Counted from the stretch's first letter, positions 4,705 to 63,071 are shown. The stretch is 64,000 nt of DNA from an uncultured Spirochaetales bacterium (GCA_964415795.1 CAYQBN010000007.1:14546-78545), one strand, 5' to 3'. Notes: generated by a model not told the origin, from the letters alone. Numbers and translations are program-made.

Positions 4705-4705
4705 G

Positions 4706-5164: not shown

Positions 5165-5174
5165 AGGTCACCTA

Positions 5175-35375: not shown

Positions 35376-36241
35376 GGCGCGCGGCACTCGCGAACATCTT
35401 CCTTCTTCTCGCCGCCTTCGCGATCCACGCCGAAACACTGACCCCTACCCTCGAGAAAAGTACGCTCTTCTTCGGCGAACCGGTGACGCTCCTCATCCCG
35501 GTCGCCCCCGGGGAAACGCTTCGCGCCACCGTAAAAGAAGAGGACAAGAACTTCGCCGTCATTCGTACCGAACCAGCTGATGGAAAGATACGCATCGTCC
35601 TCTCGGCGCTCGAGACCGGATCATTCACGACGCCGCCCCTCATCCTCTTTGTCGATGGGAGATCCTACGAAATCGCACCGGTCGCCGTGACCGTCACCCC
35701 CAATACGACCGAGGCCGACACGAGCCTCCGCGATATCAAGCCGCCGGTGAAGGCCTTCGAGACCGACTATACGCTCCTGTGGGTGCTCGGGGCGATCACC
35801 GTCGTCGCCCTTCTCCTGTTCCTGTTCTGGCGCCTCTCGAAACGACGGCGGCGCGAAGCGACGATCTCGGCGAGCGAGAAGACCCCGTACCAAGTGGCCC
35901 TCGAGTACCGGCGCCGTGCTGAACAGCAACTTCAGGAGATGGACTACGAGGCCTTCGCCGACACGGTGACGGCGGGATTGCGCCATTACCTTGAACTCGT
36001 GAAACACCGTCCCTTCCTCGAGATGACGACGGGCGAGATACGGCGTGTCCTCAAGAAAACCGATATCTCGGCCGAAGAGGCGGAGCGGATCGTCGCCTTC
36101 CTCTCCGATGCCGACCGCTTCAAGTACGCCGACGAGCCCCTTTCGAGCGACCGCTTTTCGGCTCTTCTCGACGAGTTCTCTCGCATCGTGGACAAGATCG
36201 AACGAACGCGGAGCGTCTCGACCCTGCCGGGGAACGGCTAA
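35372..36241 (+). CDS. hypothetical bitopic membrane protein (third gene of the MoxR/DUF58 module)
   Basis: Starts at ATG 35372, overlapping the DUF58 stop (ATGA). It has a signal peptide MRRAALANIFLLLAAFAIHA, a periplasmic domain of about 120 aa, a TM helix WVLGAITVVALLLFLFW, and a cytoplasmic domain of about 140 aa. Confidence 0.45.
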   Translation: MRRAALANIFLLLAAFAIHAETLTPTLEKSTLFFGEPVTLLIPVAPGETLRATVKEEDKNFAVIRTEPADGKIRIVLSALETGSFTTPPLILFVDGRSYEIAPVAVTVTPNTTEADTSLRDIKPPVKAFETDYTLLWVLGAITVVALLLFLFWRLSKRRRREATISASEKTPYQVALEYRRRAEQQLQEMDYEAFADTVTAGLRHYLELVKHRPFLEMTTGEIRRVLKKTDISAEEAERIVAFLSDADRFKYADEPLSSDRFSALLDEFSRIVDKIERTRSVSTLPGNG

Positions 36242-37512
36242 CCGTCCTTCTGACACAGGCGAGCAAGGTCCTCGAAAAAGGCAGGGTACGATTTGGCGAC
36301 CGCGGAGGCGCCGCGTATCGTGATCGGGCCAAACCGAAGCGCCGCTATCGCCACCGCCATGGCGATGCGGTGATCACCACGGGCATCGAGGGTTACCGTT
36401 CCATTGTTTGGCCGCACCGCGAGTGACGGAATCACAAGGTCATTTCCTTCTATTTGTATCTGTGCTCCCATTTTGGAAAACTCTTCTTGAAGCACCGTCG
36501 CACGATCGCTCTCTTTGTGGCGAAGGCGGGAAACGCCGGTGAGCCGCGAGACGCCGGAAGCAGTGAGCGCAAGCGCCGTGAGCACGGGGAAAAGGTCGGG
36601 CGCATCGGTGAGATCGACAGTGAATGAACGGAGCGGCCGCGCGGTGATGGTAATCTTTCCCTGCCCGCATTCCACCCGAGCACCTGCCTCACGCAACACC
36701 TCGAGCACGAGGCTGTCAGCCTGTCGAGAAGGAATCGAAAGCCCCTGCACGGTGACAGTTCCCGCGACCGCACCTGCCACGAGCAACGCCGCCGCGCTCG
36801 ACCAATCACCTTCCACCACATAGTGACCGGGCCGGTACCGCTGGCCTCCCGGAATGATGAACCGATCGCCCTCTTCCCATAGTACGGTGATACCGAACGA
36901 GGCGAGGACATCGAGAGTCATCGCCACATAGGGGCGGCTCGTGAGACCGGCGACCGTAAGTACCGAATCTTTCTCGGCACAGGGAAGCGCCATGAGAAGG
37001 CCGGTGAGCCCCTGAGAACTGATGCTTCCATCCACCACGGCTTCTCCGCCTCGCAACGGACCATGCACGGTGATCGGCGGAAAACCGCCGGCCGTCTCGC
37101 ACCGGGCGCCGAGCGTCGCAAGCGGCGCCACCAGCATCGAAACCGGTCGTTTGAGAAGCGATCCCTCTGCAGTAAGCCGCACCGATTGGTCGGCAAGCGC
37201 AGCGATTGGAGCGAACATCCGGAGTGCCAGTCCCGACTCACCACAGTGAACGGGCGTACCCGAGGGGACAAGACCGCCACGTATGACAAGCCTCTCCTCC
37301 TGATGAGATATGACCCGTGCACCGAGGGCGACCGCAGCACCGAGCGCCGCGCGCGTATCGTCACACAGGCCCCCGGCGGTTAGTACTGTCTCGCCGGCGG
37401 CAAGAAGCGCCGCCGCGGTCGCGCGCTGAAAGTAGCTCTTCGAGGGGGGAGCAGTAACGGCGCCGTTGACCGTCCCCGGAACAATAACCACCGGAGTATC
37501 GTCCACGCTCAT
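36238..37512 (-). CDS. aroA: 3-phosphoshikimate 1-carboxyvinyltransferase (EPSP synthase)
   Basis: 424 aa. PPSKSYFQRATAAALLAAGETVL corresponds to the LPGSKS...R motif. The two-domain enolpyruvyl-transferase layout is present. Confidence 0.8.
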   Translation of the reverse strand: MSVDDTPVVIVPGTVNGAVTAPPSKSYFQRATAAALLAAGETVLTAGGLCDDTRAALGAAVALGARVISHQEERLVIRGGLVPSGTPVHCGESGLALRMFAPIAALADQSVRLTAEGSLLKRPVSMLVAPLATLGARCETAGGFPPITVHGPLRGGEAVVDGSISSQGLTGLLMALPCAEKDSVLTVAGLTSRPYVAMTLDVLASFGITVLWEEGDRFIIPGGQRYRPGHYVVEGDWSSAAALLVAGAVAGTVTVQGLSIPSRQADSLVLEVLREAGARVECGQGKITITARPLRSFTVDLTDAPDLFPVLTALALTASGVSRLTGVSRLRHKESDRATVLQEEFSKMGAQIQIEGNDLVIPSLAVRPNNGTVTLDARGDHRIAMAVAIAALRFGPITIRGASAVAKSYPAFFEDLARLCQKDG

Positions 37513-38698: not shown

Positions 38699-39790
38699 AT
38701 GGAGAGTCCTATGGAAAGCGAGCGAAAATTCCGGCTGGTCAACGACGAGCGGATCTACACCTTCGAAGAGATTGCAGAAAAGATTCTCTCCGCAGAAATT
38801 TCGTGTGACACCCTTATCTGGGAGCCGGCACTTCCCAACTGGGTGAAGGTCTGCGATTATCCCGATTTTACGGAAGTGCTCGCCGAGCGGGAGCGTCTCG
38901 CCCAAGAGGCGCTTGCCAAGGCGATGGGCACCGATAAAGAGTCGATCGAACGAAAAGAGATGAGATCCCTCTTCGAGGATGTCGAACGCGAGAAACAGCG
39001 CCTTGCGTTCTCTCATACTCCATGGCTTCGCTGGACGGTGACCGTGTTCGCCTGCACCGCGATGATCGCATCGACCGCCAAGTTCCTCTATACGCTCTTC
39101 TACACCACGGAAGGACAACAACTTCTCGGGACCGTCATTGAAGACGTGCCGGAAGAAACGATAGATATCGAAAAGGTTCGCATGGCATCGGGCGTTACGA
39201 AGCTCGACGAAGTGAAGGGCATCACCATCAAGAAGGTCGAGAAGAAGCAGGAAAAGGACCTTCTTGCCGTGGTTATCGCCGAAATGAAAGCTGAGGAAGA
39301 TGCCGAAAAGAAACAAGCCTCCGCTCCGAACGCCACCGCAAAGGAGGAAAAGAAAAAACTGGTCAGTCTCTTCGACAAGGTCTCTGACGAGGAAGTGGAG
39401 CAGTTCCGCCGCGCGCTTCTCGCAAAGACCGGCTATAGCGGCTCGAAGAACGCTATCGTGAAGGACAATGCCGCAAAAATGGCGGCGCTTCCCGAGGAAC
39501 TCTCCTCGAAACAGGTCGCAGCGGTCGTCAAAGAACACTCGAACTCGACCATCGCCTACTGTTACAACAAGTCGCTCAAACTCGATGCCTCGCTTTCAGG
39601 TAAACTCGAGGTGACCGTGAGCGTCCTCGGTAATGGCCGCGTCGCCAAGGTCGAGACCACCACCCAAAAGTTCAAAGGAACCAACCTCGAGCGCTGCGTG
39701 AAGGACCTCATAAAGAAAAAGTGGGTCTTTCCCGAATTCAATGGGACCGTGACCGAAGTAACAATACCGTTCGTGCTCTCGTCCGAATGA
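38699..39790 (+). CDS. GltJ-like membrane protein: N-terminal GYF-like (DUF4339) domain, one TM helix, low-complexity K/E linker and C-terminal AgmX/PglI (TonB-C-like) domain
   Basis: The GYF-like end reads YTFEEIAEKILSAEISCDTLIWEPALPNWVKVCDYPDF. The TM helix is WLRWTVTVFACTAMIASTA. The C-terminus STIAYCYNKSLKLDASLSGKLEVTVSVLGNGRVAKVETT...LERCVKDLIKKKWVFPEF...VTIPFVLSS matches the AgmX/PglI C-terminal domain consensus. Confidence 0.55.
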   Translation: MESPMESERKFRLVNDERIYTFEEIAEKILSAEISCDTLIWEPALPNWVKVCDYPDFTEVLAERERLAQEALAKAMGTDKESIERKEMRSLFEDVEREKQRLAFSHTPWLRWTVTVFACTAMIASTAKFLYTLFYTTEGQQLLGTVIEDVPEETIDIEKVRMASGVTKLDEVKGITIKKVEKKQEKDLLAVVIAEMKAEEDAEKKQASAPNATAKEEKKKLVSLFDKVSDEEVEQFRRALLAKTGYSGSKNAIVKDNAAKMAALPEELSSKQVAAVVKEHSNSTIAYCYNKSLKLDASLSGKLEVTVSVLGNGRVAKVETTTQKFKGTNLERCVKDLIKKKWVFPEFNGTVTEVTIPFVLSSE

Positions 39791-40425
39791 TCCGTTCCGC
39801 AGGCAATAACGGAGAAACACTGAGCATGTCGGCGCACCTCAATGACGAACGAGAACTCGTTGCTGCGGCACGTGCCGGTGACGTGCGCGCTTTCGAGACA
39901 CTCGTGCGACGCCACTATGCGACGCTCTACCGTTTTGCTCTGGGAATAACGCATGGAAACGAGGCTGAGGCAAGCGATCTTCTCCAGGAGGCGCTCGTCA
40001 AAGCCTTCCTCGCGATGGGCTGTTTCGAGGGAAGATCGAGTTTCCCTTCATGGCTCTGGCGCATCATTCGGAACGAATATACCGACCACCTCCGGCGAAC
40101 CCATGGGGAATCTACCCCAATCGACCAGATCGAACACCTTCCCGATCATAGCGAAGACCCTGAAGAGGCCGCCCTCGCCGAAGAACGGCGACAGATACTC
40201 TGGCGCCTGCTCGCCGCCTTACCGGAGATCTTTGCCGACGTCATCATCCTCGTGGAGATCATGGGCCTCTCTTACGAAGAAGCAGCCGAATATCTTGGGA
40301 TTCCGATTGGATCGGTACGGAGCCGTCTTTCCCGAGCCCGCGAGCGACTCGCCAAACTGGCGGCACAAGAACGGGAACTTTTTACGCGGCTGGCGCGTCT
40401 TACGGAACGAGGAGGTCGGGTATGA
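39787..40425 (+). CDS. ECF (sigma-70 family group IV) RNA polymerase sigma factor
   Basis: Region 2 reads LYRFALGITHGNEAEASDLLQEALVKAF. Region 4 reads ADVIILVEIMGLSYEEAAEYLGIPIGSVRSRLSRARERL. The ATGA overlap with the upstream gene puts the start at 39787. The alternative ATG at 39826 is also possible. Confidence 0.85.
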   Translation: MIRSAGNNGETLSMSAHLNDERELVAAARAGDVRAFETLVRRHYATLYRFALGITHGNEAEASDLLQEALVKAFLAMGCFEGRSSFPSWLWRIIRNEYTDHLRRTHGESTPIDQIEHLPDHSEDPEEAALAEERRQILWRLLAALPEIFADVIILVEIMGLSYEEAAEYLGIPIGSVRSRLSRARERLAKLAAQERELFTRLARLTERGGRV

Positions 40426-41057
40426 AAGACGAACGAAAAAATCAGGCGGAACGGCTCGTCGCCGACCTCCTTTCTTTTTCGAAGCTCCCCCAGAAACCGC
40501 TTCCCGACGATTTCGAAGCGACACTTCATCGGCGGCTCGTCGAAGCGGCGGCGACACATCCTCGACCGAAACAAGAAAGCAGTTTCCGCCTCATGATGCG
40601 GCCGCTCTTCATCGCAGGAGCATTCACCGCTGTGTTCTTTCTGGGTCTCATGATCGGGCGGATGCTGCCCGCTCCCCGCACTGTCGAACCTGAGCAGATA
40701 CCGCTCGCTGATCGGAGCACTCCGACACCGGCACCAGTGGTTGCCGCGAAGACAGTGGTCCAGCGCGGTGAACCGGTCACCATTCGCCTTGTGTACGAAT
40801 CGGCGAAAGATATTGAAGAGGTACGCTTTACCGTGGTGCTCGATGAGGGGGTTCGTTTCCGCGCGAACGATCCCGATATCGCGTCACAGCGCGAATTGGC
40901 ATGGAAAGGATCGCTCACCGCAGGACGCAACGAGATACCAATCGTCGTGACGGTGGAAGAGGCGGGAGAACGCACCATTCGCGCCCTTGCCCAATTCAAC
41001 GGTACCACACTCGAACAGGTGGTCACCCTCGTCGCCAAGGAGACTCCTCATGCGTAG
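40422..41057 (+). CDS. putative anti-sigma factor (single-pass membrane protein)
   Basis: ATGA overlap with the sigma gene stop. It has a cytoplasmic N-terminus of about 60 aa, a TM helix LFIAGAFTAVFFLGLMIG and a periplasmic domain of about 130 aa. The position and topology are typical of ECF anti-sigma factors. Confidence 0.5.
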   Translation: MKDERKNQAERLVADLLSFSKLPQKPLPDDFEATLHRRLVEAAATHPRPKQESSFRLMMRPLFIAGAFTAVFFLGLMIGRMLPAPRTVEPEQIPLADRSTPTPAPVVAAKTVVQRGEPVTIRLVYESAKDIEEVRFTVVLDEGVRFRANDPDIASQRELAWKGSLTAGRNEIPIVVTVEEAGERTIRALAQFNGTTLEQVVTLVAKETPHA

Positions 41058-41331
41058 CCTCGTCCTCATAGGGTTCTTTTTCCTTCTCTTCCCGCTCTTC
41101 CCTATCACGGCGGGCGATCCGGCAGTGGTTACCCCTTCGACCGAGATCGAGCCGGGAAAGGAGGTCCCCGACTGGGAAGCGCGCTTCCAAAAGCGGGAGG
41201 AAAAGAAAGAGGACAAAGAGCAACGCAGGGAAGTGAGAAAAGAACGCAAGCGCGACGAAGCGGACGAAAAGCGCGAACAAAAGAAAGAACAGCGCCGCGA
41301 GATGCGCAAAGACCATCGCGAACACCGGTAG
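41050..41331 (+). CDS. small secreted highly charged (K/E/R-rich) protein
   Basis: Overlaps the anti-sigma stop by 8 nt. Signal peptide MRSLVLIGFFFLLFPLFPITA|GD, then FQKREEKKEDKEQRREVRKERKRDEADEKREQKKEQRREMRKDHREHR. The composition resembles the 24018 and 51008 proteins. Confidence 0.4.
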   Translation: MRSLVLIGFFFLLFPLFPITAGDPAVVTPSTEIEPGKEVPDWEARFQKREEKKEDKEQRREVRKERKRDEADEKREQKKEQRREMRKDHREHR

Positions 41332-42348: not shown

Positions 42349-42390
42349 AAAATCTTCTCAAAAAGAAGGGCGGGCCCGAAGGCCCGCCCG
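42349..42390. terminator. bidirectional rho-independent terminator
   Basis: GGGCGGGCC-CGAA-GGCCCGCCC is a perfect 9-bp GC stem at 42367-42388. It is flanked by an A-run on the plus strand, which is a T-run for the convergent minus-strand giant gene ending at 42416. Confidence 0.6.
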
Positions 42391-42415: not shown

Positions 42416-45400
42416 TTACAAGGTTCCGGTAAAGAAGGTGCGGAGCTCTTCGACGAGCGGGTTGCCGTCGGTCCCGTGGACACCTTTCGTAACGACCACG
42501 CCGTACCGCACGCCCGGCGCAAAGGTACTGGTAGCGGTGAAGCGGACGACCGGGTAGCCGTCCACCGTTTCAAGGGTAAAGGCGCCCGCCAGTACGACAC
42601 CGGTCTCGACTTCGTAGATGAAGATGGTCGTTTCGTCGGCCGTGAGCATGTCTATCGCCTCGGAGAAGTAGAGGTCTATCACCTGCCCGCCCGCAAGGTC
42701 TATGTCGGCACAGAGCGGCACGGGTCCGAGATCGTCGCCACCGACGGTATCGAAGGCACTCGTGAAATCGGCGCCAAGCATGTTGCCGGCAAGGTCAGCA
42801 ACTGTCCCCGCAACGGTGAGCGTGTAGACGGTCTCGTCGTGGAGATCGTTCGGGAGCGGGACGAAGGTGATGCGACGGTAGGAGTAATCGAGCGCCAGAC
42901 AGCCAAACACGTCGTCCTCGGCATCGGCACCGCAGGCAGGCGGGGTGTCGCGGGTCACCCGGAACGATCCGTCGCTGGAGGTGGTGCTCCGCGTAATGGT
43001 CGCCACCCCGAGCGGCTCGCTTGCGGCAATCCGTACGGTGGCGTTCACGCTGACACCGGCCGCGAAGTTGGCGGGAGAAACCGAGACGATCACCGGCGGC
43101 GTCTCTTCGACCTCGAACGAAACGGAGTAGGGAGCCGCGAGCGCGTTGCCGGCAGTATCAGTGATGCCGTCCATGGTGAGCGTGTAAGGATTGCCATACG
43201 AAACAAGCGGTGCGTTCGGTCTGATAACCACGAGCGTGTTCGTCACGCTGATCGTGGCGCCTATTGCCGTCCCATCGGTATCGGTGAGCGTCACGGTACT
43301 CCCCATCACGAACGAGGCAGGATCGACCGGTTCATTGAAAGAGACCATAAGCATCGTCCACGAGGCGATACCGGTCGCGCCGGCAAGAGATATCCATGCA
43401 CCCGCCTCGTCCTGCCCGAGAGCGCCGGCAACGGTGGGCACCGTGGTCTCGACCGTATAGTTCCGCACATCGTCAGGGTCGGTAGAAGCGATCGTGTAGA
43501 TGTTGGCGATCTGGTTCTTGCGGATCGTCAGTCTGACATCACCGGCACCCGCCCTCAGGAAACGGGTCGGATAGATCTCGGCGATATTACCGCTCTGTTC
43601 GGGAACAAAGTAGAGGGTAAAAGGCACCTGATCGATGAGCCGCCACGAGAGGCCACTCTGATCCGCCGCGAACGGTCGATCGAGGATCGCGTGCGTCTCG
43701 TCCACGACCGTCACGATGGTGCGGCGACCGTTGTTCCCCGCCGTTCCGGAGCCGTAGGTCTCGATGACTTTCCCCTCGTCGCCAGCGGCGAATGTTCCTG
43801 CGGTCCCAACGGTGAACGAGGGGCTTCCCGCCACCACGGTACCGTTGGTACCTGACTTATTAATTTGATCAAGATATACCGAGTACTCGTTGATACTCGC
43901 CGGTGCCATACTGTACCTGTGGTTGGAGCCGCCGTCAGGCCATTTGATGGTAAAGTGCTGATCGCCCCTTACTACGCTTCCGTCAGCCGGCGAAATGTTG
44001 AGTGTCCCATTAGGGGTGATGGCCGTCGTTGCGGGAGCATTACCGATGTCTCCCCATGTCTTCGAAGCGGCGATGACCGGGTTGCCCCGGTAATCCCATA
44101 CGCCACTCGTCACCGAGAGGGTCGCGTCAACCGCCCCATTGACGAGCGCCGGCATCGGTATCACCATGAAGCTCAGCGGCTGGCTCGAATTCACCGCGAA
44201 CAGCGCCGAGTTGATCTCCGATCCCTGCACCAGATAGATCGTCTCGTGGGTCAGACTATCACGATAGAGGGCTCGCGACGAGATGATGAGTGGATTCTCA
44301 AGGACATTGGTCGCCGGTGCATCGGGCGAGAAGCGGAGATGGGTCTCGGGACTCGTGTAGAAGAGGTACCGCGAGATGCCGGCGAAGGGGTTACCGTTCG
44401 CGGCGCGCAGGAAGATCGAGGTATTGCGGTAGGTACGTCCCTTGATGATGAGCCGGTGGTAATCGCGATCGTCGGTGATGCGCCACCGGATGTCGCTTTC
44501 ACCGACGGCGAAGGTGGTGTCGGTGGTGAGGGTGTTCGCTGCCTCGTTCACGCCGGTGATGAGAACTCGCCGCGTGTTACCCGACTGAAGACCGTAGAGG
44601 AAGAGGTACTTGCCCAGATCACGGTAGGTCGCGACCCGGTAGTTATCGCTGGTCGTCGGTATCGTGACCACATTCGATCCCGCCGTCACCGAGGCATGGA
44701 AACCGAGGTAATCGCTGTGATGTATCAGTTCCTTAGCGTGGGTCACATGGATCTCGGTGTCCTCGTTCTCGACGGTGATCGTAAGATCGGCGGGGTTCCA
44801 GTAACGCGCCCAGTTGAGATCGGTCACCGAGGCGCTGAAGGTGACGCCGCTCAGCGTGACGGTCCGATCGTCGATGACCGTTTCGATGAGGTAGAGCCCG
44901 TCGTTCTCTTCCGTGCCGAAGATCTCTATCATCTTGCCTTCGTCGCGCCCGAGGAGGAAGGTGCCCCGCTTGGCGACGGCAAATTGAGAGGATGCGGCGG
45001 TCACCGCACCGTCGATCCCCCGATCGTCCTCGAGGAGAAGGGTGTCGCCGTTCGCCGAGGTCGGGTCTATCTTTTCACGGAAGGAAATGACGAATTCGGC
45101 ATTGACCGGAACCTCGTCGGCACCGCTCAGGTTGGTGAGCCCGACGACCGCGTTGCGGTACTTGACGCTGAGGATCGCGATGCTCGGCGGCGTCGAGAAG
45201 GTGTGCAGGAATTCGTCGCCGCCACTCATCGCTTCCACATGGAGCGGGTTGTCGTTCCAGTTCGCGTTGCGGATGTAGGTAGAGACATGAACGGTGAACT
45301 CGGTGTTGAGCGGCAGGGAGAACTGGGGATCTCCCGACTTCTCGCCGCACGAGTAGAGGGCATAGATGTCGGGAGTGAAGGTGGCGACGGTGCACCCCGC

Positions 45401-48400
45401 ATTGGTGCTTGTGTCACAACCGATATTCCATGTTATCGTTCCGGGAACGACTGTCGTTCCACCGAACTCGTTTTCGTAGGTGACATAGAAGGTGCCGCCG
45501 TTCACCGAGGCGACATCCACGTCCTCGCGGAAGTAGGCGTCGATGGTGAGCGCATCGAGGTCGTCGCTATTGTTGACCACCACATAGAGGAGCAGACCGG
45601 CGGTGCCGGTGTGGAAGGTGGAGGTATAGAATCCGGTGAGCGTGCGTCCATCTATGTCCTGGATGTCCCGCGAGACGACCACTGTGTAATCGCTGTCGGG
45701 CATGAGCGTACTCTTCGGTTTGAGCGTCGCCACCGTCTCACCAGCGGTCCACTGGAGGTCTATCTCTACTGCCAACGGGTCGGAACAGTCGTACTGAACG
45801 CCCGGCAACAGGCAGATGTTGGGGACGATGCCATCGGCGTCGGCGCCAAGGTCACTTTCGACGCTCGCCGTATTGACCGGCGCGCTGAAGGTGACGGTCG
45901 GCATCACATCGAGCGGCACACCGTTCGCGCCGTTGGGAGGATAGATGAAAGCCACGAATTCACCTTGCTTGGCGGTGTGGAACGAGAAGGTGTAGGCAGG
46001 CGACGCGATGCACCCGTCATCGCTCGTGTCACCGGGCGTCTTGTCGGGAGAGCAGACGCCGTCGGCGCCGCCATCAATGGTCACCGTATAGTCGGTGTCG
46101 TAGCAGAGCGCCTCGGGGTCGCAGTCTGCATCGTCCGGCGCGATCTGTATCGTCACCGAGGCCGGATCGGCACAGGTTATCGTCGCGGCGAGTTTCTGAT
46201 TCGGATCGCTCGTCGTTCCCTTGTTGACGAAAAGGGTGGCGTCGGTGATCGTGGCACAGGCGGCCGGCTGGTTGAAGGTGATGATGATCGGCAGGTCGGG
46301 ATCGAAGGCGGAAGAACCGGCGGCGTTCGAGGAAACGACAAAGAGCTTGTCGAGGTGCTCAGTGCCGAACCCAAACGCGAACGGCGGTACGAGGTATCCC
46401 TGCGTCGGGTCGTTGGGATTGACCGCTCCACCTGCCGCTCGCTCGTCTCTCACATCGCTCGTGAGATAAACGAGGAAGTCGCGGCCGTAGCCGAACTCGG
46501 CGTCGGCGGTGAAGGTGACGGTCGCGTTCCCCGGAATGCAGTCCCACGAACCGCCCACCGGATCGCCCGGAGCGACCGGGTCAGTAACGAAGGTGCCATC
46601 ATCGTAGGTGACGAAAATGTTCTGGTCGTTTATCGTCGTGCAGTCTGGGGCATAGTTGAAGGTAACCGTTATCTGGGTCGCAGTGTGCGGCACATCGCGA
46701 TTGTCGTGGGCCGGCGAGGTTGCGATAACGCGCAGTTCTTCGAGCCGTTCCACCTCAATGAGGAACTTCGTCTCGAGCGAATGTTGCCCGCCGCGTACGG
46801 TGGCGCGATCCGATTTCACGACATTCGCCGTCGGATCGTCGGAGCCCGGTATCGTGACGCGGATGAGCGTGCCATACTGATAGGGCGTTTCAGGCGTAAA
46901 GGTCATGAAGATGTCGTCTCCGATGAGCTCGGCGTTCACCGGCGCATCGTCGGCATTGTAGGTAAGCGTCCCCGCGATTGGACCGTGAGCCGGGTCGTTG
47001 AGCGGATCGGCAAGACCGGTGACATCCTCGACGATGACCGTCTCCCCAAGCACCGCCGACGACTGGCGAATCCCTTCAGAGAAGCCAACGATGATGGTAT
47101 CGGTGCGCGGTATCGTGAAGTGGCCGCTGCCAGTGCCGATGGTGACCACGCCGAGCGGCGGCGGATCCATCGTCGAATAGCGGAAGGTGTAGCCGCCGCG
47201 GAGGTGCCCCATGAGCGGATCGGCATGTTCGTTGACCAATTTAGCCTCGGGGGTCGCCACCGCATCGGTAAGCGTCACCACCACATCACGGCTATACTTT
47301 ATCGGCGTATCGGGGACAATGGTGATCGAGGTGTCGCCCTCTGCGCAGGCAGGAGTTATCGTTGCCGGGATCGCAGCACCAGGCACCTCAGGATCGGTCG
47401 TATCGAAGGCAAGGGTGACCGTCGTCCCCAGAACAAGCGTTGTGCAATCAACCGCTCTATTGAAATTGATGGTAATGGAACCATCTATCGGCTTGCCTTT
47501 CTCGCCATCGCCGGGGAAGGTTCCAGTCACGATGAGGTCAGGCGTGGTCTCACTCTCGAAGAGATAGGTGGTCGTGATCGGCAACTGGCCGCCGCGATCG
47601 GTTGCACGGTCCGATTTCACGACATTCGCCGTCGGATCGTCGGAACCGGGCCAGACCACGCGTACCACAGTACCATACGGAAGCGGTTCCGCCAGTGTGA
47701 AGGTAACGACATTATCATCACCGATGAGAGAGGTACCGAGCGGCGCATCGTCAGCGTTGAACGAGACTGATCCGACAATGGGACCATGTGCCGGATCATG
47801 CAGCGGGTCGGCAAGACCAGTGACATCCTCGACGATGATCGTCTCTTCAGGAATCACTGTATCCTGAGCGACCCCCTCCGAGAAGGTGAACACGAGCGTA
47901 TCGGTGCGCGGCATCGGCAGGATACCGGATCCCGTCGTCGCCGATACTATCGAGAGAACGAGCGGATCCTGCATTCGGAAGAGGTAGGTGAGCGTCACCG
48001 GCAACTGACCGCCGCCGTCGGTCACGCGGTCGGACACGACAAGGCCGGTGAGTGGATGCACCGTCTGGTCATCACCGCGGAGCGTGATGCGAATGAGACG
48101 CGAGTAGTCAATGACCGAAAGCGGCGTCACCCGAATGGTCGTGTCAGCACCGGTGAGATACCGGTCATCCCAGTGGATGGTGTCCCCAGCATCGCCTGCT
48201 GGATCACCGCCATTGTCAAGCCATTCGACTGTGCACGGGATCGCTACGGCATTATCTTCTCCCTCGGTTACATCTTCAATGAGAAGCGCACCGCCCTCGT
48301 CGGCCGCGATTTCTCCATCGCCGTCAACATCTATCTCGCGCTGTTTGACCCCTTCACTGAAAGTGATGACGAACGAGGTCGCATCTCCCGAGTCGGGCGC

Positions 48401-49270
48401 AGTCTCGCGGAGGATCTCCTCGGCAGCACCGGAGGGCGTTATCGAAACGACCGCCACGGCCGGCGGGTTCTTCGTCTTGAACAGCACCACGACCTCTTTG
48501 GGCAGAAAACCACCGCTCGCGGTGGCAACCGGCGTGCGTATCGCCGTGGTGAGCGTGAGGCGTACGAGACGCGAGTAGCCGAAGGGAGCCGCCGGTGTGA
48601 TTGTGAGGATCGTATGGTCCTCGTTCCAAACGAGGCCGTCCTCCGCAGCAAGATCAACCGCCACCGCCGGATCGGCGGTCACATCTTCCACGATGAGACT
48701 TTCTCCCGCGACGACCGACGCCGGATCGACCGGATGGCTGAACACCACGCGGATCTCTCGGTACACGGAGGTATCCCACGCACCGGCCGAAGGAGTGGTA
48801 TGGACTACCATGAGGTCATCGGGATCTATCGTCCGGAAGGTCGCCCGCACCTCAACGGCCAGCTCGCCTCCTTCCGAAGAATCGGTATCAGCCTTGCGGA
48901 TATGTTTGGTGAGAACCATCCGGTAGGTGGTCGAGTAGCCGAAGGGAGAAGCCGGCGTAAAGGTCGCCGACTTTGTCGCCTCGTCATACGCGATCGTTCC
49001 CTCTACTTTGACGGGATTCTCGGGATCGGCGATATTCTCGATAAAAAAACCCTCTCCGTCGGTAACGGTCTCAGGGACTATCTTTTCCGAGAAGACCGCC
49101 GTCACTTTTGTGTCAAGTGCGACCTCGGCACTCCCATCATTGGGAGAGAGATACACCACCCGAAGCGGGTTATCGGCAACCACGACGAAATCCTTGTCGC
49201 CGCACCCGCCGACGAACAGCGTCGCCAGAACGGCAACTACCAGCAGAAGCGCACACGAGAGCGTTTTCAT
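42416..49270 (-). CDS. giant cell-surface lipoprotein (2284 aa) built of many bacterial Ig-like (SbsA/Big-type) domains
   Basis: Lipobox signal MKTLSCALLLVVAVLATLFVGGC|GD. There are repeated modules of about 100 aa with the P.DG...V.....V...FSE.I......T pattern, for example SPNDGSAEVALDTKVTAVFSEKIVPETV. It is Thr/Val/Asp-rich, has no enzymatic motifs, and ends at a rho-independent terminator. Confidence 0.8.
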   Translation of the reverse strand: MKTLSCALLLVVAVLATLFVGGCGDKDFVVVADNPLRVVYLSPNDGSAEVALDTKVTAVFSEKIVPETVTDGEGFFIENIADPENPVKVEGTIAYDEATKSATFTPASPFGYSTTYRMVLTKHIRKADTDSSEGGELAVEVRATFRTIDPDDLMVVHTTPSAGAWDTSVYREIRVVFSHPVDPASVVAGESLIVEDVTADPAVAVDLAAEDGLVWNEDHTILTITPAAPFGYSRLVRLTLTTAIRTPVATASGGFLPKEVVVLFKTKNPPAVAVVSITPSGAAEEILRETAPDSGDATSFVITFSEGVKQREIDVDGDGEIAADEGGALLIEDVTEGEDNAVAIPCTVEWLDNGGDPAGDAGDTIHWDDRYLTGADTTIRVTPLSVIDYSRLIRITLRGDDQTVHPLTGLVVSDRVTDGGGQLPVTLTYLFRMQDPLVLSIVSATTGSGILPMPRTDTLVFTFSEGVAQDTVIPEETIIVEDVTGLADPLHDPAHGPIVGSVSFNADDAPLGTSLIGDDNVVTFTLAEPLPYGTVVRVVWPGSDDPTANVVKSDRATDRGGQLPITTTYLFESETTPDLIVTGTFPGDGEKGKPIDGSITINFNRAVDCTTLVLGTTVTLAFDTTDPEVPGAAIPATITPACAEGDTSITIVPDTPIKYSRDVVVTLTDAVATPEAKLVNEHADPLMGHLRGGYTFRYSTMDPPPLGVVTIGTGSGHFTIPRTDTIIVGFSEGIRQSSAVLGETVIVEDVTGLADPLNDPAHGPIAGTLTYNADDAPVNAELIGDDIFMTFTPETPYQYGTLIRVTIPGSDDPTANVVKSDRATVRGGQHSLETKFLIEVERLEELRVIATSPAHDNRDVPHTATQITVTFNYAPDCTTINDQNIFVTYDDGTFVTDPVAPGDPVGGSWDCIPGNATVTFTADAEFGYGRDFLVYLTSDVRDERAAGGAVNPNDPTQGYLVPPFAFGFGTEHLDKLFVVSSNAAGSSAFDPDLPIIITFNQPAACATITDATLFVNKGTTSDPNQKLAATITCADPASVTIQIAPDDADCDPEALCYDTDYTVTIDGGADGVCSPDKTPGDTSDDGCIASPAYTFSFHTAKQGEFVAFIYPPNGANGVPLDVMPTVTFSAPVNTASVESDLGADADGIVPNICLLPGVQYDCSDPLAVEIDLQWTAGETVATLKPKSTLMPDSDYTVVVSRDIQDIDGRTLTGFYTSTFHTGTAGLLLYVVVNNSDDLDALTIDAYFREDVDVASVNGGTFYVTYENEFGGTTVVPGTITWNIGCDTSTNAGCTVATFTPDIYALYSCGEKSGDPQFSLPLNTEFTVHVSTYIRNANWNDNPLHVEAMSGGDEFLHTFSTPPSIAILSVKYRNAVVGLTNLSGADEVPVNAEFVISFREKIDPTSANGDTLLLEDDRGIDGAVTAASSQFAVAKRGTFLLGRDEGKMIEIFGTEENDGLYLIETVIDDRTVTLSGVTFSASVTDLNWARYWNPADLTITVENEDTEIHVTHAKELIHHSDYLGFHASVTAGSNVVTIPTTSDNYRVATYRDLGKYLFLYGLQSGNTRRVLITGVNEAANTLTTDTTFAVGESDIRWRITDDRDYHRLIIKGRTYRNTSIFLRAANGNPFAGISRYLFYTSPETHLRFSPDAPATNVLENPLIISSRALYRDSLTHETIYLVQGSEINSALFAVNSSQPLSFMVIPMPALVNGAVDATLSVTSGVWDYRGNPVIAASKTWGDIGNAPATTAITPNGTLNISPADGSVVRGDQHFTIKWPDGGSNHRYSMAPASINEYSVYLDQINKSGTNGTVVAGSPSFTVGTAGTFAAGDEGKVIETYGSGTAGNNGRRTIVTVVDETHAILDRPFAADQSGLSWRLIDQVPFTLYFVPEQSGNIAEIYPTRFLRAGAGDVRLTIRKNQIANIYTIASTDPDDVRNYTVETTVPTVAGALGQDEAGAWISLAGATGIASWTMLMVSFNEPVDPASFVMGSTVTLTDTDGTAIGATISVTNTLVVIRPNAPLVSYGNPYTLTMDGITDTAGNALAAPYSVSFEVEETPPVIVSVSPANFAAGVSVNATVRIAASEPLGVATITRSTTSSDGSFRVTRDTPPACGADAEDDVFGCLALDYSYRRITFVPLPNDLHDETVYTLTVAGTVADLAGNMLGADFTSAFDTVGGDDLGPVPLCADIDLAGGQVIDLYFSEAIDMLTADETTIFIYEVETGVVLAGAFTLETVDGYPVVRFTATSTFAPGVRYGVVVTKGVHGTDGNPLVEELRTFFTGTL
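46790..48010 (-). repeat. near-identical intragenic tandem duplication (801-nt period, core of about 400 nt) inside the giant Ig-like gene
   Basis: A DNA stretch of at least 35 nt (tccgatttcacgacattcgccgtcggatcgtcgga) recurs exactly at 46810-46845 and 47611-47646. The protein copies read ...IVEDVTGLADPLHDPAHGPI...PGSDDPTANVVKSDRATDRGGQ and ...IVEDVTGLADPLNDPAHGPI...PGSDDPTANVVKSDRATVRGGQ, spaced 267 aa apart. Confidence 0.6.
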
Positions 49271-49287
49271 CGGAACCTCCCTCTATC

Positions 49288-50076
49288 TTAGTATGTGTAC
49301 TTGTATCCCACGAGCACCATCGCTCCCCCGATATCGCCGACCTCTTTGTTGAGGTGCGGGTAATCGAAATCGAGGAAGAAACCGGAGTGACGATACTCGA
49401 CCGTGACGCCGCCCCATGGCAGGAATCGGAACTCGAGGCCGGCATACACCACATAGCCGAAGGCGACATCCTCGGCAAAGGTGTTACCGCCGAAGAGGTC
49501 ACCGTTCGAACGCGCCCAGACAGTAGAGAAACCGACGCCTCCGATGAACACGAGCCACTGGAGCGGCTTATCTATCTCCACGGCGGCACCCACGGTAACA
49601 GGTACCGAGTCTATGACCCACGAGTAGTCATACAGCCCTATCTGCGGGTCAACCTGCGTCCCTTCTCCCGAAAGGCGGTACCATGCGGCGTCAACGCCCA
49701 CGGTGAACCACGGGTTCATCCACGGGAGAATGTAACGGACATCGAGGTGGGCGCCGAAACCGGGATTCACCCGGGCGATGGGCGCCGTCATATCGGCCTT
49801 GACCGCGACACTGACATAGTGAAGCGACGGTTGTTGCGACTCTTTGTCTTTTTTGACATTATCCTCTTCTCCCCCTTTTTTCTCTTTCTTCTCTTCTGCC
49901 AGCGGAGCAGCAGGAAGGGCGGTCGCGGGGGGTTCCTGCGGGCTTACCTCGCTCCCCGTTGCCGGGGCCACCCCGGAAGAGTCACTACTGGGCCCCGCCT
50001 CGGTCGTACTCTCTTGAGCAACCACGAAGAGCGGAATGACGAGAAATGACAGGAACGATAGCCTTCTCATCTGCAC
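49288..50076 (-). CDS. outer-membrane beta-barrel protein (OmpW/OmpA-like small barrel)
   Basis: Signal peptide MQMRRLSFLSFLVIPLFVVAQE, then an acidic/K-rich linker, alternating strands and a C-terminal ...VLVGYKYTY. Confidence 0.55.
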   Translation of the reverse strand: MQMRRLSFLSFLVIPLFVVAQESTTEAGPSSDSSGVAPATGSEVSPQEPPATALPAAPLAEEKKEKKGGEEDNVKKDKESQQPSLHYVSVAVKADMTAPIARVNPGFGAHLDVRYILPWMNPWFTVGVDAAWYRLSGEGTQVDPQIGLYDYSWVIDSVPVTVGAAVEIDKPLQWLVFIGGVGFSTVWARSNGDLFGGNTFAEDVAFGYVVYAGLEFRFLPWGGVTVEYRHSGFFLDFDYPHLNKEVGDIGGAMVLVGYKYTY

Positions 50077-50082
50077 CTCCCC

Positions 50083-50826
50083 TCACTGCGCTGTTGTCGA
50101 GAAACGGATTATCACATCATCTCCGAGCGGAATGCCCCCCTTGTCGGTGATGGTACCCGCCACGAAGATCGTGTAGGTGTGGAGAGGAAGCAAGGGGCGA
50201 TCCATCGTGAATCGAGCGGTCAGAGTATCCTCATCGTAGGAAACGCTACCGTCCGTGTCGCTCACGAGGAAGGTGGCCGGCGTGATGGTCGCTGCAGCCA
50301 TCGGCTCAGAGAAGACGACCTCTATGACCGAGAGATCGGGTGCTACCGTTTCTCCGTCCGCAGGAGCCGAAGAAACAACTGCGGGTGGCGTCGCACGAAT
50401 CGAGAAAGTAGAAACGAACAGTGTGTCCACGCCCCCGAGATCGAGGGGGATACCATCCTGGTCCTGTATTTGGCGTGTCACCTCCACGGTATAGGTCTTC
50501 CCCTCCCCAAACGCCGATGACGGGGTCGCCGTTGCCGAAAGTGCATCTTCCGAGACCGCCACGCTCGCCGCCACCTCCCGTCCCTCCGCGTCCTGAATGC
50601 GGAGCGAATAGGGAGTCACCGTCGTCGGATCAATGGGCCTCGTAAAAGTGACCGTCACCACCGCGTCGGATACGACATCAACGGCACCGTCAGCCGGCAC
50701 CACCTCCGCGATCTGGGGAGCCACCGGATTCTCTTCGCCGGTCGGCGAATAGGGCGGCACACAGGCGATCAAAAAAAGAGAGAGCACTAACCACACCATA
50801 CGGATCATAGCCTTTTTCCTCTTCAT
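50083..50826 (-). CDS. Ig-like domain lipoprotein (two SbsA_Ig-type domains)
   Basis: Lipobox MVWLVLSLFLIAC|VPP. Two modules match the Ig-like pattern (VVPADGAVDVVSDAVVTVTFTRPIDPTTV and VVSSAPADGETVAPDLSVIEVVFSEPMAAATI). Confidence 0.6.
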   Translation of the reverse strand: MKRKKAMIRMVWLVLSLFLIACVPPYSPTGEENPVAPQIAEVVPADGAVDVVSDAVVTVTFTRPIDPTTVTPYSLRIQDAEGREVAASVAVSEDALSATATPSSAFGEGKTYTVEVTRQIQDQDGIPLDLGGVDTLFVSTFSIRATPPAVVSSAPADGETVAPDLSVIEVVFSEPMAAATITPATFLVSDTDGSVSYDEDTLTARFTMDRPLLPLHTYTIFVAGTITDKGGIPLGDDVIIRFSTTAQ

Positions 50827-51007
50827 GGAACACCTCCCTCGAGGTCCTTCGCTGAAGAAATGAATACTCTCAATTGTAGGACGTTTCCAGAAAAAAAAAA
50901 GTTCCCTACTCCCTCGTCAAGGACCCGTCGGGAACTTTTCCTTTACTCTCTTCGTCTTATGGGCGTGACGAGTAACCGCCGATAAGGAAAAGAAAAAGGA
51001 GGATGCC

Positions 51008-51460
51008 ATGAAAAGGATCGTCGTGCTTGTGGGGATCGTAGTGTTCATGTTGTCGCTCGGTCTTAAAGCTCAGGAAACGACCGAGCCGGTGAAGGAGCAG
51101 AAGAAGGTTGAAGAAAAACAGAAGGAAGAGACCAAGAACGCTGGCGAGGAACAGCAGCTCCGCGAGCGGGAACGGGTGCGCGAGCATCTAGGGACCGGCG
51201 AAGGGAAAGCCCCCGGGGATGAGAAAGCCATGGCCCGCGATCAGAAAGAGGAAAAGAAGGCTCTCAAAGAGGAACAAAAGGAACAGAAGCGCGAGATGAA
51301 GCAGGAACAGAAAGATGCCAAGAAGGAAATGAAAGAGGAGATGAAGGAAGAGAAGAAGGAGATGAAAAAAGAACAGAAAAAAGAGTGCAATGAACTGAAA
51401 AAACAGCAAAAGAAGGAACACAAGAAGGATTCCGACAAAGGTTCCTCCGAAGGGAAATAA
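51008..51460 (+). CDS. small secreted K/E-rich LTXXQ (Spy/CpxP-like) family protein
   Basis: Signal peptide MKRIVVLVGIVVFMLSLGLKA|QE, then about 125 aa of KEEQKEQKREMKQEQKDAKKEMKEEMKEEKKEMKKEQKKEC... It is a paralogue of the 24018 protein. An AAGGAGG RBS precedes the ATG. Confidence 0.4.
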   Translation: MKRIVVLVGIVVFMLSLGLKAQETTEPVKEQKKVEEKQKEETKNAGEEQQLRERERVREHLGTGEGKAPGDEKAMARDQKEEKKALKEEQKEQKREMKQEQKDAKKEMKEEMKEEKKEMKKEQKKECNELKKQQKKEHKKDSDKGSSEGK

Positions 51461-58228: not shown

Positions 58229-58268
58229 TAATGAATTTTCTCATCATCCCTGTAACATTTCGTGGAGT

Positions 58269-58913
58269 TCATTCCTCTTTTTTCGCCCCTTCTTTCTTCT
58301 TTCCAGCGGCATCGTCGGAAGCAGGCGCCTCTTCCTCCACATCCCGGATCTCCTGTTCCTGTTCCTGTCCCTCGGTCAATATCGTCTTCACGGGAAGTTC
58401 TAGGTACAGCTTATTGAGGATCTTTCTTCCCAACGGATCCTTGTACACTTCGGTGATCTCGAGTTTGTCCGGGAAAATGGCGCTGATCTTCCCCCAATTC
58501 TTTCCAATGAAACTGCCCCGCTTGACAATGATGCTCTTGCGATCGGGCGTCACTACCACGGCACGCGGTTCAGTGATGCCCCACACTATCGCCGTCACAT
58601 TAAGGTCGGAGATATCGTACTTCTGAAGTTCGCTCACCGGCTCCCGCTCTTCTTCGACCGCCCGCATATCACCGAAATAGCTCCGGAAGGGGTCTCGTTT
58701 ACCGACTGCCGAATAGATGTAGGTCGAGCGCTTTTTGATGATGTCGGTAATGTTTTTTTCGATATCGCTACGAGGCACCGTTACCGCCGTTTTGCTCACT
58801 CGATCATATTCGGCCTTATAGTCGAAACGCTCTATTTCATACTCATTGACGCAGGAAACAACCGCCGTCGCGATGCCTATCAAGAGAACGAAACGATATA
58901 CGCGTCTTCTCAT
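58269..58913 (-). CDS. pilP: type IV pilus assembly lipoprotein PilP
   Basis: Lipobox LLIGIATAVVSC, the conserved RDPF motif (GKRDPFRSY), and a position between pilO and pilQ. Confidence 0.65.
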   Translation of the reverse strand: MRRRVYRFVLLIGIATAVVSCVNEYEIERFDYKAEYDRVSKTAVTVPRSDIEKNITDIIKKRSTYIYSAVGKRDPFRSYFGDMRAVEEEREPVSELQKYDISDLNVTAIVWGITEPRAVVVTPDRKSIIVKRGSFIGKNWGKISAIFPDKLEITEVYKDPLGRKILNKLYLELPVKTILTEGQEQEQEIRDVEEEAPASDDAAGKKKEGAKKEE

Positions 58914-59596: not shown

Positions 59597-59609
59597 TCGT
59601 CGTCTCCGC

Positions 59610-62956: not shown

Positions 62957-63071
62957 CGAACCTCCGGATCGTGGCAAAATGTGAAAAAATGGTAATGAGT
63001 ACTCGGCAGAAGTCAATTTTACGGAAAAAGTTGCTTTTTGACTTTTTGCTACTAGATTGATGCCGATTTCG

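Follow-up and report, generated by a model that had tools for sequence, protein, structure and literature searches.

Predicted operon for a giant Ig-like lipoprotein, a small outer-membrane barrel and a second Ig-like lipoprotein beside an ECF sigma factor block in a Spirochaetales-labelled genome

Introduction

Giant Ig-like fibres with a lipid anchor are known adhesins, for which the Lig proteins of Leptospira are the model, but only in a few model organisms is it well understood how lipoproteins of this kind are retained and displayed at the outer membrane. The Glt platform of Myxococcus combines outer-membrane barrels, lipoproteins, the surface lipoprotein adhesin CglB and the TonB-like proteins GltG and GltJ. 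The Lig proteins of Leptospira are N-terminally acylated and contain 12–13 immunoglobulin-like (Ig-like) domains, with Big_5 domains located in the C-terminal extension of LigB and LigC (PMC7821625). Binding activity in the Lig proteins is confined to the distal, variable domains, and the proximal domains are conserved (PMC7821625). For Bacteroidetes, the lipoprotein export signals (LES) SDDFE, SDDDD and K-(D/E)2 have been described (PMC5080379). The locus presented here is a compact and conserved three-gene case from a 64-kb stretch of DNA (64,000 nucleotides, GCA_964415795.1 CAYQBN010000007.1:14546-78545, hereafter the window) belonging to an uncultured bacterium labelled Spirochaetales. The minus strand of the window encodes a small Ig-like lipoprotein, a small outer-membrane protein (OMP) and a giant Ig-like lipoprotein of 2284 aa.

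The trio is best read as encoding a lipid-anchored Ig-like adhesin fibre, regulated by an extracytoplasmic function (ECF) sigma factor, for which the barrel and the small lipoprotein would serve as anchoring partners. A probability of roughly 0.5 is assigned to this reading. An earlier note on the same DNA had drawn attention to the cluster; the non-Big_5 central region of the giant protein, the modules it shares with phage tail proteins and the ECF-type promoters were absent from that note and are added here. Literature searches returned no description of this gene trio.

Operon structure

Three co-oriented open reading frames (ORFs) are present on the minus strand at 50083–50826, 49288–50076 and 42416–49270, and the ORF check and translations bear out these coordinates as given in the earlier note. 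A strong Shine-Dalgarno site of the GGGAGG type lies upstream of all three genes. For the middle gene, a GGGGAGG site is located 5 nt ahead of an ATG at 50070, and the database copy of the protein (P0001) is 260 aa long and identical to the product of that ATG. The start was moved from the GTG at 50076 to the ATG at 50070 because of this site placement and the length of P0001. The resulting intergenic gaps are 12 nt between the small gene and the OMP gene and 17 nt between the OMP gene and the giant gene; the earlier figure of 17 nt stands, and the accompanying figure of 6 nt holds only with the GTG start. An intrinsic terminator (GGGCGGGCC-TTCG-GGCCCGCCC followed by TTCTTTTT) is found 27 nt past the stop codon of the giant gene, reading from 42389 to 42368, between the giant gene and a convergent gene for a 330-aa protein. 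The Shine-Dalgarno sites, short gaps and terminator hairpin support the proposal of a single transcription unit closed by a strong terminator and, judged from the sequence, the three genes form one operon. Rfam and tRNA scans of the region gave no match. The window itself is ordinary chromosome, with MutS, UvrA, RNase J, ThyX, SHMT, NrdR and a pilMNOPQ operon all present.

Conservation of the gene trio

Related loci and proteins are cited below by L and P numbers. Loci were recovered through the OMP or the N-terminus of the giant protein and were judged only if long enough. The order of small Big_5 lipoprotein, barrel and giant was found in 15 of the 15 informative loci (L001–L003, L005–L009 and L011–L017), which represent at least six sequence lineages. 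The closest relatives are syntenic throughout the neighbourhood, including the genes for SHMT, dCMP deaminase and NrdR, and this synteny therefore proves little by itself. In the clade of L002, L008 and L014, SHMT is replaced by another gene, and the 150-aa gene upstream of the trio, the trio and the ECF sigma factor block are kept. The trio is also kept in the distant loci L015–L017, at identities of 42–56% for the giant N-terminus, 45–49% for the OMP and 37–44% for the small protein. The upstream flank of the trio is entirely unlike that of the window in L016 (1256–6444), where genes of a contractile injection system (sheath, Pvc16 N-domain and AHH nuclease) adjoin the trio on the opposite strand. 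Every member of the OMP family with readable context sits in such a trio. The check proposed in the earlier note, for conserved synteny of the small OMP with giant Ig-like lipoproteins in related metagenome-assembled genomes (MAGs), was thus positive in every related locus recovered, down to identities of 45–49% for the OMP and 37–44% for the small protein.

The envelope and regulatory genes of the region diverge faster than their cytoplasmic neighbours. Compared with L005, the identities are 97% for SHMT and 88% for both NrdR and dCMP deaminase, against 72% for the giant protein, 70% for the 330-aa OMP, 69% for the ECF sigma factor, 65% for the 150-aa protein, 61% for both the barrel and the anti-sigma-like protein, and 50% for the small lipoprotein, the gene of which is the fastest-evolving of the block.

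Giant Ig-like lipoprotein

The giant protein matches Pfam Big_5 with 329.9 bits (gathering cutoff 23.6, E 4.4e-100) in nine stretches. An iterative hidden Markov model (HMM) of the module detects 14 Big_5 modules, of which 11 lie in aa 32–1465 and three in aa 1957–2276, with independent E-values (i-E) of 1e-15 to 6e-33 for each of the modules in the N-terminal array. When the module profile was compared with solved structures, it matched SbsC 2ra1 (E 1e-6), 4uic and 4uj6 (range E 1e-6 to 3e-5), CopC and Sap. Profile homology to the solved SbsC, CopC and Sap domains gives indirect support for an Ig-like sandwich fold of the Big_5 modules. The AlphaFold2 (AF2) model that covers B10 and the first half of B11 has a mean predicted local distance difference test (pLDDT) of 35. 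Sequence search found no PDB relative of the giant protein, the Pfam scan found no Big_2 match in it, and a weak fn3 match was rejected as a fold-level or chance likeness.

The possibility that a giant ORF built from repeats is an assembly artefact had been raised. The internal repeats are only 25–60% identical to one another, and orthologues in independent assemblies are 2284 aa (L005), 2124 aa (L008) and 2136 aa (L002) long, 68–72% identical, collinear over the full length and free of stops. For both of these reasons the ORF is not regarded as an artefact, and its integrity holds across intact collinear orthologues of 2050–3051 aa. In L001, a low-quality MAG, the orthologue at 1934–6286 is broken by an in-frame stop (codon 475) that falls in a garbled, unaligned stretch of about 20 residues; a local assembly error or a pseudogene in that record is the probable explanation, not a defect of the window. 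NCBI annotates only a 474-aa protein there (P0057), and the NCBI name for a fragment of a giant orthologue is "Ig-like domain-containing protein".

Compared with distant orthologues, the modules B1–B2 are the best conserved (42–59% identity) and the C-terminal modules the least (31–42%), and modules are gained or lost in the middle of the array. The residues that follow the lipidated cysteine are also conserved. The motif C-[SG]-[DE]-x-[DN]-F-V-V-x-x-D-x-P-L-R-V is found in P0011–P0014, P0016 and P0017 and is loosely kept in P0019–21 and P0024; it begins C-G-D-K-D in the giant protein and C-S-D-[KQE]-[DN] in the orthologues.

Central region and phage-tail-like modules

Neither Pfam nor PDB gave a match for aa ~1466–1956 of the giant protein. 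An exhaustive search with the central region among 1.84 billion representative proteins returned only 46 proteins, which fall into three groups. The first group (P0011–P0017, 2050–3051 aa) shows 33–66% identity over the whole central region, and its members are collinear with the giant protein of the window module by module, with B3 or B4–B5 missing or extra modules present. The second group consists of other giant Big_5 proteins in which the common stretch is restricted to aa ~1600–1810. The third group contains about 30 proteins (P0026 and P0029–P0056) of roughly 400–1200 aa, most of them 750–950 aa, and no Big_5 domain was found in the five that were sampled. A word-seeded homologue search gave one match for the central region and four for the N-terminal profile, and missed long orthologues known from the loci.

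Proteins of the third group contain three to six copies of a module of about 72 aa with the pattern DG..(x)..F...DvGK.i.i.GS..GNdG.Y.I..V....tv.L.......l.W.l, and this module occurs three times in the giant protein (M1–M3; Table 1). Some of the multi-copy proteins exhibit weak matches to Tail_P2_I and to a PHROG annotated as pectin lyase. The profile of the ~72-aa module matches the phage tail nozzle 8ck1 (E 9e-4) and, more weakly, the tail tube 9n71 and the decoration protein 8eci. The AF2 model of the central region, built from an alignment of only two sequences, has a mean pLDDT of 35 overall; M3 alone reaches 68–83 and is modelled as a small beta domain. The local fold of the M3 model matches the small beta-barrel domain of phage endosialidases and depolymerases, as well as 9n71 and 8eci, and these fold matches were used because they agree with the sequence-profile matches. 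A kinship between M3 and the endosialidase or depolymerase domain is suggestive only. In general appearance, the proteins of the third group resemble phage or contractile-injection-system components of the tail-fibre or baseplate type.

Removal of M1 and M2 in silico raises the Pfam Big_5 score from 19.3 bits (profile positions 7–53) to 28.3 bits (positions 7–79), with a match that spans the M1 junction. At least M1 is therefore inserted inside an Ig-like module. After removal of the 72-aa modules, the two central segments that remain (aa 1636–1810, and aa 1760–1960 once spliced) were still not recognised as Big_5. A GH43_C match of 15–16 bits was below the cutoff and was rejected as a fold-level or chance likeness. 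The giant protein is predicted to be a rod of about 16 Ig-like modules, 14 of which are detected; the number is only an estimate because these two central segments could not be recognised as Big_5 after the modules had been removed.

Small lipoprotein and outer-membrane barrel

The small lipoprotein matches Pfam Big_5 (PF13205) with 111.1 bits, compared to a gathering cutoff of 23.6. Its mature N-terminus after Cys22 is the tether C-V-P-P-Y-S-P-T-G-E, and the lipobox and YSPTGE tether are retained in orthologues across L001–L017. The lipoboxes of the two lipoproteins (LIAC22 in the small and VGGC23 in the giant protein) both conform to the pattern [LVI][ASTVIG][GAS]C, and the cysteine is invariant among orthologues. 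The assignment of both proteins to lipobox proteins with SbsA/Big-type modules is upheld by Big_5 matches in each and by the module profile match to SbsC 2ra1 (E 1e-6). A CopC match of the small lipoprotein (41 bits) was rejected as a fold-level likeness that reflects the same E-set Ig-like fold; the copper-binding motif was not looked for.

The middle gene product has a predicted signal peptide cleaved at ..VVA/QE and ends in ..GYKYTY, with Y or F as the last residue among family members. It matches Pfam OMP_b-brl (PF13505) with 30.6 bits, just over the cutoff of 28.7. This match, the signal peptide and the C-terminal aromatic residue agree with the description of a small beta-barrel OMP encoded between the two lipoprotein genes. 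The AF2 model has eight long strands, with a mean pLDDT of only 55 and values of 55–75 in the barrel part. The best Foldseek matches of the model are the OmpA transmembrane domain, NspA, Ail, OmpX, the OprF N-domain and OmpW, and the target-normalised TM-score to 8-stranded barrels reaches 0.72 for this model of mean pLDDT 55. The assignment of the barrel to the OmpA/OmpX class with eight strands is a low-confidence one, and the same applies to the fold of the 72-aa module because the structure models are weak. Among nine members of the OMP family, the barrel is nearly invariant and the N-terminal linkers cannot be aligned. In the distant loci the linker is essentially missing (L015) or K/E-rich (L017), and the OMP of L016 has an additional N-terminal domain of about 150 aa with a long A/P/K/E-rich linker. 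A word-seeded search among 5.8 billion proteins found nine clusters of the OMP family, and no PDB relative was found by sequence search. A PorV2 match (13 bits, cutoff 325) was rejected as a fold-level or chance likeness.

ECF-type promoters

The sequence CGTC is an ECF-type -10 element. Two back-to-back copies of GGAACTTTT-N13-CGTC are found in the 181 bp that separate the small gene from the divergent 150-aa gene, one directed toward each gene, and a third motif lies within the 3' end of the sigma factor gene, 23 nt ahead of the anti-sigma-like gene of the ECF block (Table 1). The trio promoter is located about 50 nt upstream of the ATG of the small gene. The motifs exhibit the GGAAC-type -35 element, the CGT-type -10 element and the 16–17 nt spacing of an ECF promoter. 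The motif GGAACTT-N13-16-CGTC occurs three times in the 64 kb, compared to 0.24 occurrences expected, and none of 100 shuffled sequences reached three. All three matches fall within the trio and the ECF block, at positions that are conserved in orthologous loci. The looser motif GGAAC-N16-18-CGTC is not enriched (8 versus 4 expected), so that the enrichment is limited to the extended GGAACTT form. Sigma-E of E. coli has GGAACTT as its consensus -35 element (PMC1540707).

The position of the trio promoter is conserved in L001, L003, L005–7, L011 and L012. In L002, L008 and L014, GGAACTTTT and the 17-nt spacing are kept and the -10 element is TATC or CATC, and L016 has GGAACTTTTT-N12-AATC upstream of the small gene. 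The divergent promoter of the 150-aa gene is conserved in L001, L002, L005–L009, L011, L012 and L014, and the third motif has the same relative position in L002, L005, L008, L010, L011 and L014. All three positions are matched in L005 and L011, and two of the three in L002, L008 and L014. The trio, the 150-aa gene, the anti-sigma-like gene and the genes for a 98-aa and the 330-aa protein would form one ECF regulon, the sigma factor of which is, from its proximity, most likely the product of 39826–40425.

Two further sequence features were observed at these promoters. The spacer of the trio promoter opens with a run of ten T (50891–50900, minus strand), and orthologous loci have 8, 7, 5, 4 or 2 T with the 17-nt spacing kept; tracts of this type can cause phase variation by slippage. 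A near-palindrome in the intergenic region, CGTCAC-GCCC-ATAA-GACG at 50957–50976, is nearly invariant in five loci, overlaps the 5' untranslated region and putative -10 element of the 150-aa gene, and may serve as an operator or form an RNA hairpin.

Neighbouring genes

The ECF sigma factor gene most likely starts at Met36 of the ORF 39721–40425, and its product matches NCBIfam sigma70-ECF as well as the Pfam families listed in Table 1. The gene in the anti-sigma position is syntenic in L005, L008 and L014. The 330-aa gene is convergent with the giant gene and lies downstream of the third GGAACTT–CGTC motif; its product has no match in Pfam, NCBIfam or PDB, and was rejected as a paralogue of the trio barrel (hhalign probability 1.7%). 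Directly upstream of the sigma factor gene, the 363-aa protein matches NF033768 (AgmX/PglI C-terminal) with 72.5 bits against a cutoff of 40 and GYF_2 below threshold (E 1.7e-4), has a membrane segment and a K/E-rich stretch, and is conserved in L005 and L011. The neighbouring operon had been called ECF/GltJ-like, of which the ECF sigma factor and the AgmX/PglI C-terminal domain can be kept; GltJ itself (NF033761) was rejected at 55 bits against an equivalog cutoff of 450. The description of the 150-aa neighbour as Spy-like had to be dropped, as no LTXXQ/Spy match was found even at E <= 10, and the protein has a signal peptide and K/E-rich low complexity. It is divergent from the trio and co-conserved with it in the closer clades. 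K/E-rich low-complexity secreted sequences recur in the putative regulon at 51008–51460 (plus), at 41050–41331 (plus, ~95 aa) and in aa 60–85 of the OMP.

Elsewhere in the window, a gene for a small secreted proline-rich peptide (..PPPSPPDSPNPPPPPPPPD..) at 660–974 on the minus strand follows a good sigma-70-like promoter (TTGACT-N17-TATACT). An isolated GGAACTTTT upstream of this gene, at 917–925, was not counted as a promoter because it has no correctly spaced CGTC. The pilM-pilN-pilO-pilP-pilQ (secretin) operon is complete at 55796–61300 (minus), 5 kb from the cluster, which is of note if the lineage is Spirochaetales. Two paralogues of the EPSP-synthase/MurA family are encoded in the same 64 kb, at 36238–37512 and 61667–63016, both on the minus strand.

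Table 1. Features of the three-gene locus and the adjoining ECF sigma factor block; positions count from the first nucleotide of the window.
Feature	Position	Strand	Description or basis
Small lipoprotein, 247 aa	50083..50826	-	Signal peptide, lipobox LIAC (Cys22), two Big_5 domains
Trio OMP, 260 aa	49288..50070	-	Type-I signal peptide, disordered linker, predicted 8-stranded barrel, C-terminal YKYTY
OMP linker, ~65 aa (aa ~20-85)	49816-50013	-	P/E/K-rich, predicted disordered
OMP barrel part (aa 86-258)	49297-49815	-	Pfam OMP_b-brl
Giant lipoprotein, 2284 aa	42416..49270	-	Lipobox VGGC (Cys23), acidic post-Cys motif, 11 Big_5-like modules, central region, 3 C-terminal Big_5
Giant signal peptide and lipobox (aa 1-23)	49202..49270	-	Mature start C-G-D-K-D-F-V-V-V-A-D-N-P-L-R-V
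N-terminal Big_5 array (aa 32-1419), B1-B10 and first half of B11	45014..49177	-	Iterative HMM, Pfam Big_5
Module M1 (aa 1420-1494), within Big_5 B11	44789..45013	-	i-E 4e-17
Module M2 (aa 1525-1603)	44462..44698	-	i-E 1e-14
Module M3 (aa 1809-1882)	43625..43846	-	i-E 5e-22
Three C-terminal Big_5 modules (aa 1957-2276)	42443..43402	-	Iterative HMM; least conserved end
Intrinsic terminator	42368..42389	-	9-bp all-GC stem, TTCG loop, T-rich tail
Trio ECF-type promoter (putative)	50880..50905	-	GGAAC 50905-50901, 17-nt spacer (T10 + CTGGAAA), CGTC 50883-50880
Divergent ECF-type promoter of 150-aa gene (putative)	50931..50956	+	GGAACTTTT-N13-CGTC
Third ECF-type promoter motif	40374..40399	+	Inside 3' end of ECF sigma gene, 23 nt upstream of anti-sigma-like gene
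GYF/transmembrane/AgmX-PglI C-terminal (TonB-C-like) protein, 363 aa	38699..39790	+	Directly upstream of ECF sigma gene
ECF (group IV) sigma factor	39826..40425	+	Sigma70_r2, r4_2, Sigma70_ECF (Pfam); NCBIfam sigma70-ECF 115 bits
Single-pass membrane protein, 211 aa, anti-sigma position	40422..41057	+	No family match
Probable mid-sized outer-membrane barrel, 330 aa	41344..42336	+	Signal peptide, C-terminal ..RFVF; last gene of ECF operon
Secreted K/E-rich low-complexity protein, 150 aa	51008..51460	+	Signal peptide; divergent from trio, co-conserved in closer clades

Proposed role and alternative explanations

In the adhesin model, Sec export would be followed by lipidation of the small protein at Cys22 and of the giant protein at Cys23. 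Both lipoproteins would be carried to the outer membrane, where the middle protein would be inserted as an 8-stranded barrel. The giant protein would form an N-terminally lipid-anchored rod, several tens of nanometres long if extended, and would stand out from the cell as a surface adhesin fibre comparable to the Lig lipoproteins of Leptospira. The barrel and the small lipoprotein would associate with its conserved modules nearest the membrane and together act as an anchoring base, not a translocon. The three ~72-aa beta modules, which probably bind ligands, most likely glycans, would lie in the more variable distal part. Expression would be tied to the adjacent ECF sigma/anti-sigma operon through the common promoter motif. 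Because its ECF promoter is recognisable and a sigma/anti-sigma pair is encoded next to it, the locus allows direct tests of both the partner contacts and the regulation. The occurrence of the 72-aa module in an Ig-like chain also points to a possible route by which receptor-binding parts of phages could be reused in bacterial adhesins.

Several points weigh against this model. The surface exposure of the giant protein is deduced rather than observed, and contact among the three proteins is proposed from their co-occurrence. In many bacteria, the default orientation of outer-membrane lipoproteins is toward the periplasm. Mean pLDDT values of only 55 for the OMP and 35 for the central region mark the structure models as weak, and the linkage count does not include the most distant homologues of the giant protein (P0019–P0024). 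On the regulatory side, the -10 element of the trio promoter differs from CGTC in three lineages, and the cognate sigma factor is assigned by proximity, with the motif preceding the anti-sigma-like gene rather than the sigma factor gene. The likeness of the acidic post-Cys motif to the LES of Bacteroidetes is only a lead, because those signals come from another phylum.

Some of these points would suit a different arrangement, in which the lipoproteins face the periplasm from the inner leaflet of the outer membrane or from the inner membrane and serve, with the barrel and the K/E-rich proteins, as a scaffold that reinforces or repairs the envelope under a sigma-E-like envelope-stress regulon. 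The promoter -35 element is the sigma-E consensus (PMC1540707), the same motif precedes genes for K/E-rich secreted proteins, the anti-sigma-like protein and another OMP, and the variable N-terminal tail of the trio OMP would be periplasmic. In many diderm bacteria, moreover, outer-membrane lipoproteins take a periplasmic orientation by default. A rod of about 16 modules is, however, far longer than the periplasm is wide, and ECF sigma factors govern many surface functions besides stress repair. The fast divergence of the envelope genes and the most variable distal end suit exposure to the outside, the presence of modules also known from phage tail and decoration proteins points to ligands outside the cell, and the acidic post-Cys motif resembles a surface-export signal. 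A periplasmic scaffold is considered unlikely on these grounds; were the proteins nonetheless to face the periplasm, the locus would encode an unusual scaffold for envelope stress. The S-layer-like assembly that the earlier note had entertained, here a two-dimensional surface array self-assembled from the Big_5 proteins and tethered by lipid and barrel, is quite improbable. Big_5 was defined on SbsA-type S-layer proteins, and the best solved matches of the module profile are to the S-layer proteins SbsC and Sap. Known S-layer proteins are nevertheless usually non-lipidated and produced constitutively at a very high level, whereas both Ig-like proteins here are lipoproteins behind an ECF-type rather than a housekeeping promoter. 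A long linear chain with a variable number of modules is typical of fibres, and the Pfam scan found no lattice-forming or SLH-type anchoring domain.

The small OMP had also been called a dedicated partner, and its strict co-location with the two lipoproteins in every locus, together with the known encoding of OMPs such as Slam beside their surface-lipoprotein substrates, could be taken to mean that the barrel is a translocon that flips both lipoproteins to the surface in a Slam-like or two-partner-like manner. With about 175 aa and eight predicted strands, the barrel resembles OmpA, OmpX and NspA, through the lumen of which a polypeptide would not fit; the role of an anchor or partner is therefore favoured over that of a translocon. 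The OMP has no DUF560, POTRA, TPR or LysM match in Pfam or NCBIfam, its N-terminal extension is variable and essentially missing in L015, and the barrel and the Ig-like proteins are separate polypeptides, so that the features of Slam, two-partner and inverse-autotransporter systems (a large barrel of 12–16 strands with periplasmic domains of these types and, in inverse autotransporters, barrel and passenger on one polypeptide) are not found. A role as export device is very unlikely. That the three genes form no functional unit and are merely syntenic neighbours within a narrow clade would agree with the closest relatives, in which even the housekeeping genes for SHMT, dCMP deaminase and NrdR are syntenic. 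This explanation is very improbable, as the trio outlasts a change of flanking genes in L016 and, with no adjoining SHMT, in L002, L008 and L014, the genes have a common promoter and terminator with gaps of 12 and 17 nt, and in no readable context is the OMP family found outside the trio. A more ambitious and unlikely version of the preferred adhesin model would make the trio a self-contained display system for surface lipoproteins. The barrel and the two-domain lipoprotein would then be a specific dock in the outer membrane that holds the giant fibre and may help to expose it, with ECF trans-envelope signalling and possibly a TonB-C-like coupling of the GltG/GltJ type. If true, this would be an energised, Glt-like adhesion platform in a Spirochaetales-labelled lineage, distinct from Slam, from the LES pathway of Bacteroidetes and from autotransporters.

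Comparison with known systems

The likeness to the Glt platform of Myxococcus is conceptual only and no more than a lead: barrels and lipoproteins are encoded beside a protein with GYF and AgmX/PglI (TonB-C-like) domains. No Glt equivalog was identified (GltJ 55 versus 450 bits; no match for GltA/B/K or CglB), nor did the window show other Glt/Agl genes. The giant protein resembles the LES proteins of Bacteroidetes in the polar and then acidic sequence directly after the cysteine (C-S/G-D/E-x-D/N-F). The lineage is apparently not Bacteroidota, however, and the small lipoprotein has no such motif in its tether.

The trio OMP resembles the OmpA transmembrane domain, OmpX, Ail, NspA and OmpW in its 8-strand model, Pfam match, signal peptide and C-terminal aromatic residue. 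In contrast to this class, its extension is N-terminal instead of C-terminal, is variable and contains no OmpA_C peptidoglycan-binding domain, and its family is very small (9 clusters) and tied to two Big_5 lipoprotein genes. With SbsA and SbsC, the S-layer proteins of Geobacillus on which Big_5 was founded, the trio shares a homologous Ig-like module. These are Gram-positive S-layer proteins without a lipid anchor that bind secondary cell-wall polymer, whereas the trio consists of diderm lipoproteins and a partner OMP.

The closest likeness is to the Lig proteins of Leptospira, since the giant protein also combines a lipobox with a long chain of bacterial Ig-like domains. Leptospira belongs to a different order of the same phylum as two related MAGs labelled Spirochaetales. 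The giant protein exhibits no sequence-level orthology to Lig and is not a member of the Lig family. Lig proteins are mainly arrays of Big_2, whereas the giant protein is almost purely Big_5, about twice as long and interrupted by ~72-aa modules shared with phage tails. Unlike the lig genes, the giant gene is always the last of an operon that has an ECF-type promoter and begins with the genes for a small Big_5 lipoprotein and a predicted 8-stranded barrel. The locus is probably a lineage-restricted, uncharacterised form of giant Ig-like lipoprotein adhesin and not a new kind of system. It is distinguished by the obligatory three-gene organisation with a predicted 8-stranded barrel, by an ECF-type promoter in common with the sigma/anti-sigma block, and by the insertion of phage-tail-shared modules in the Ig-like chain.

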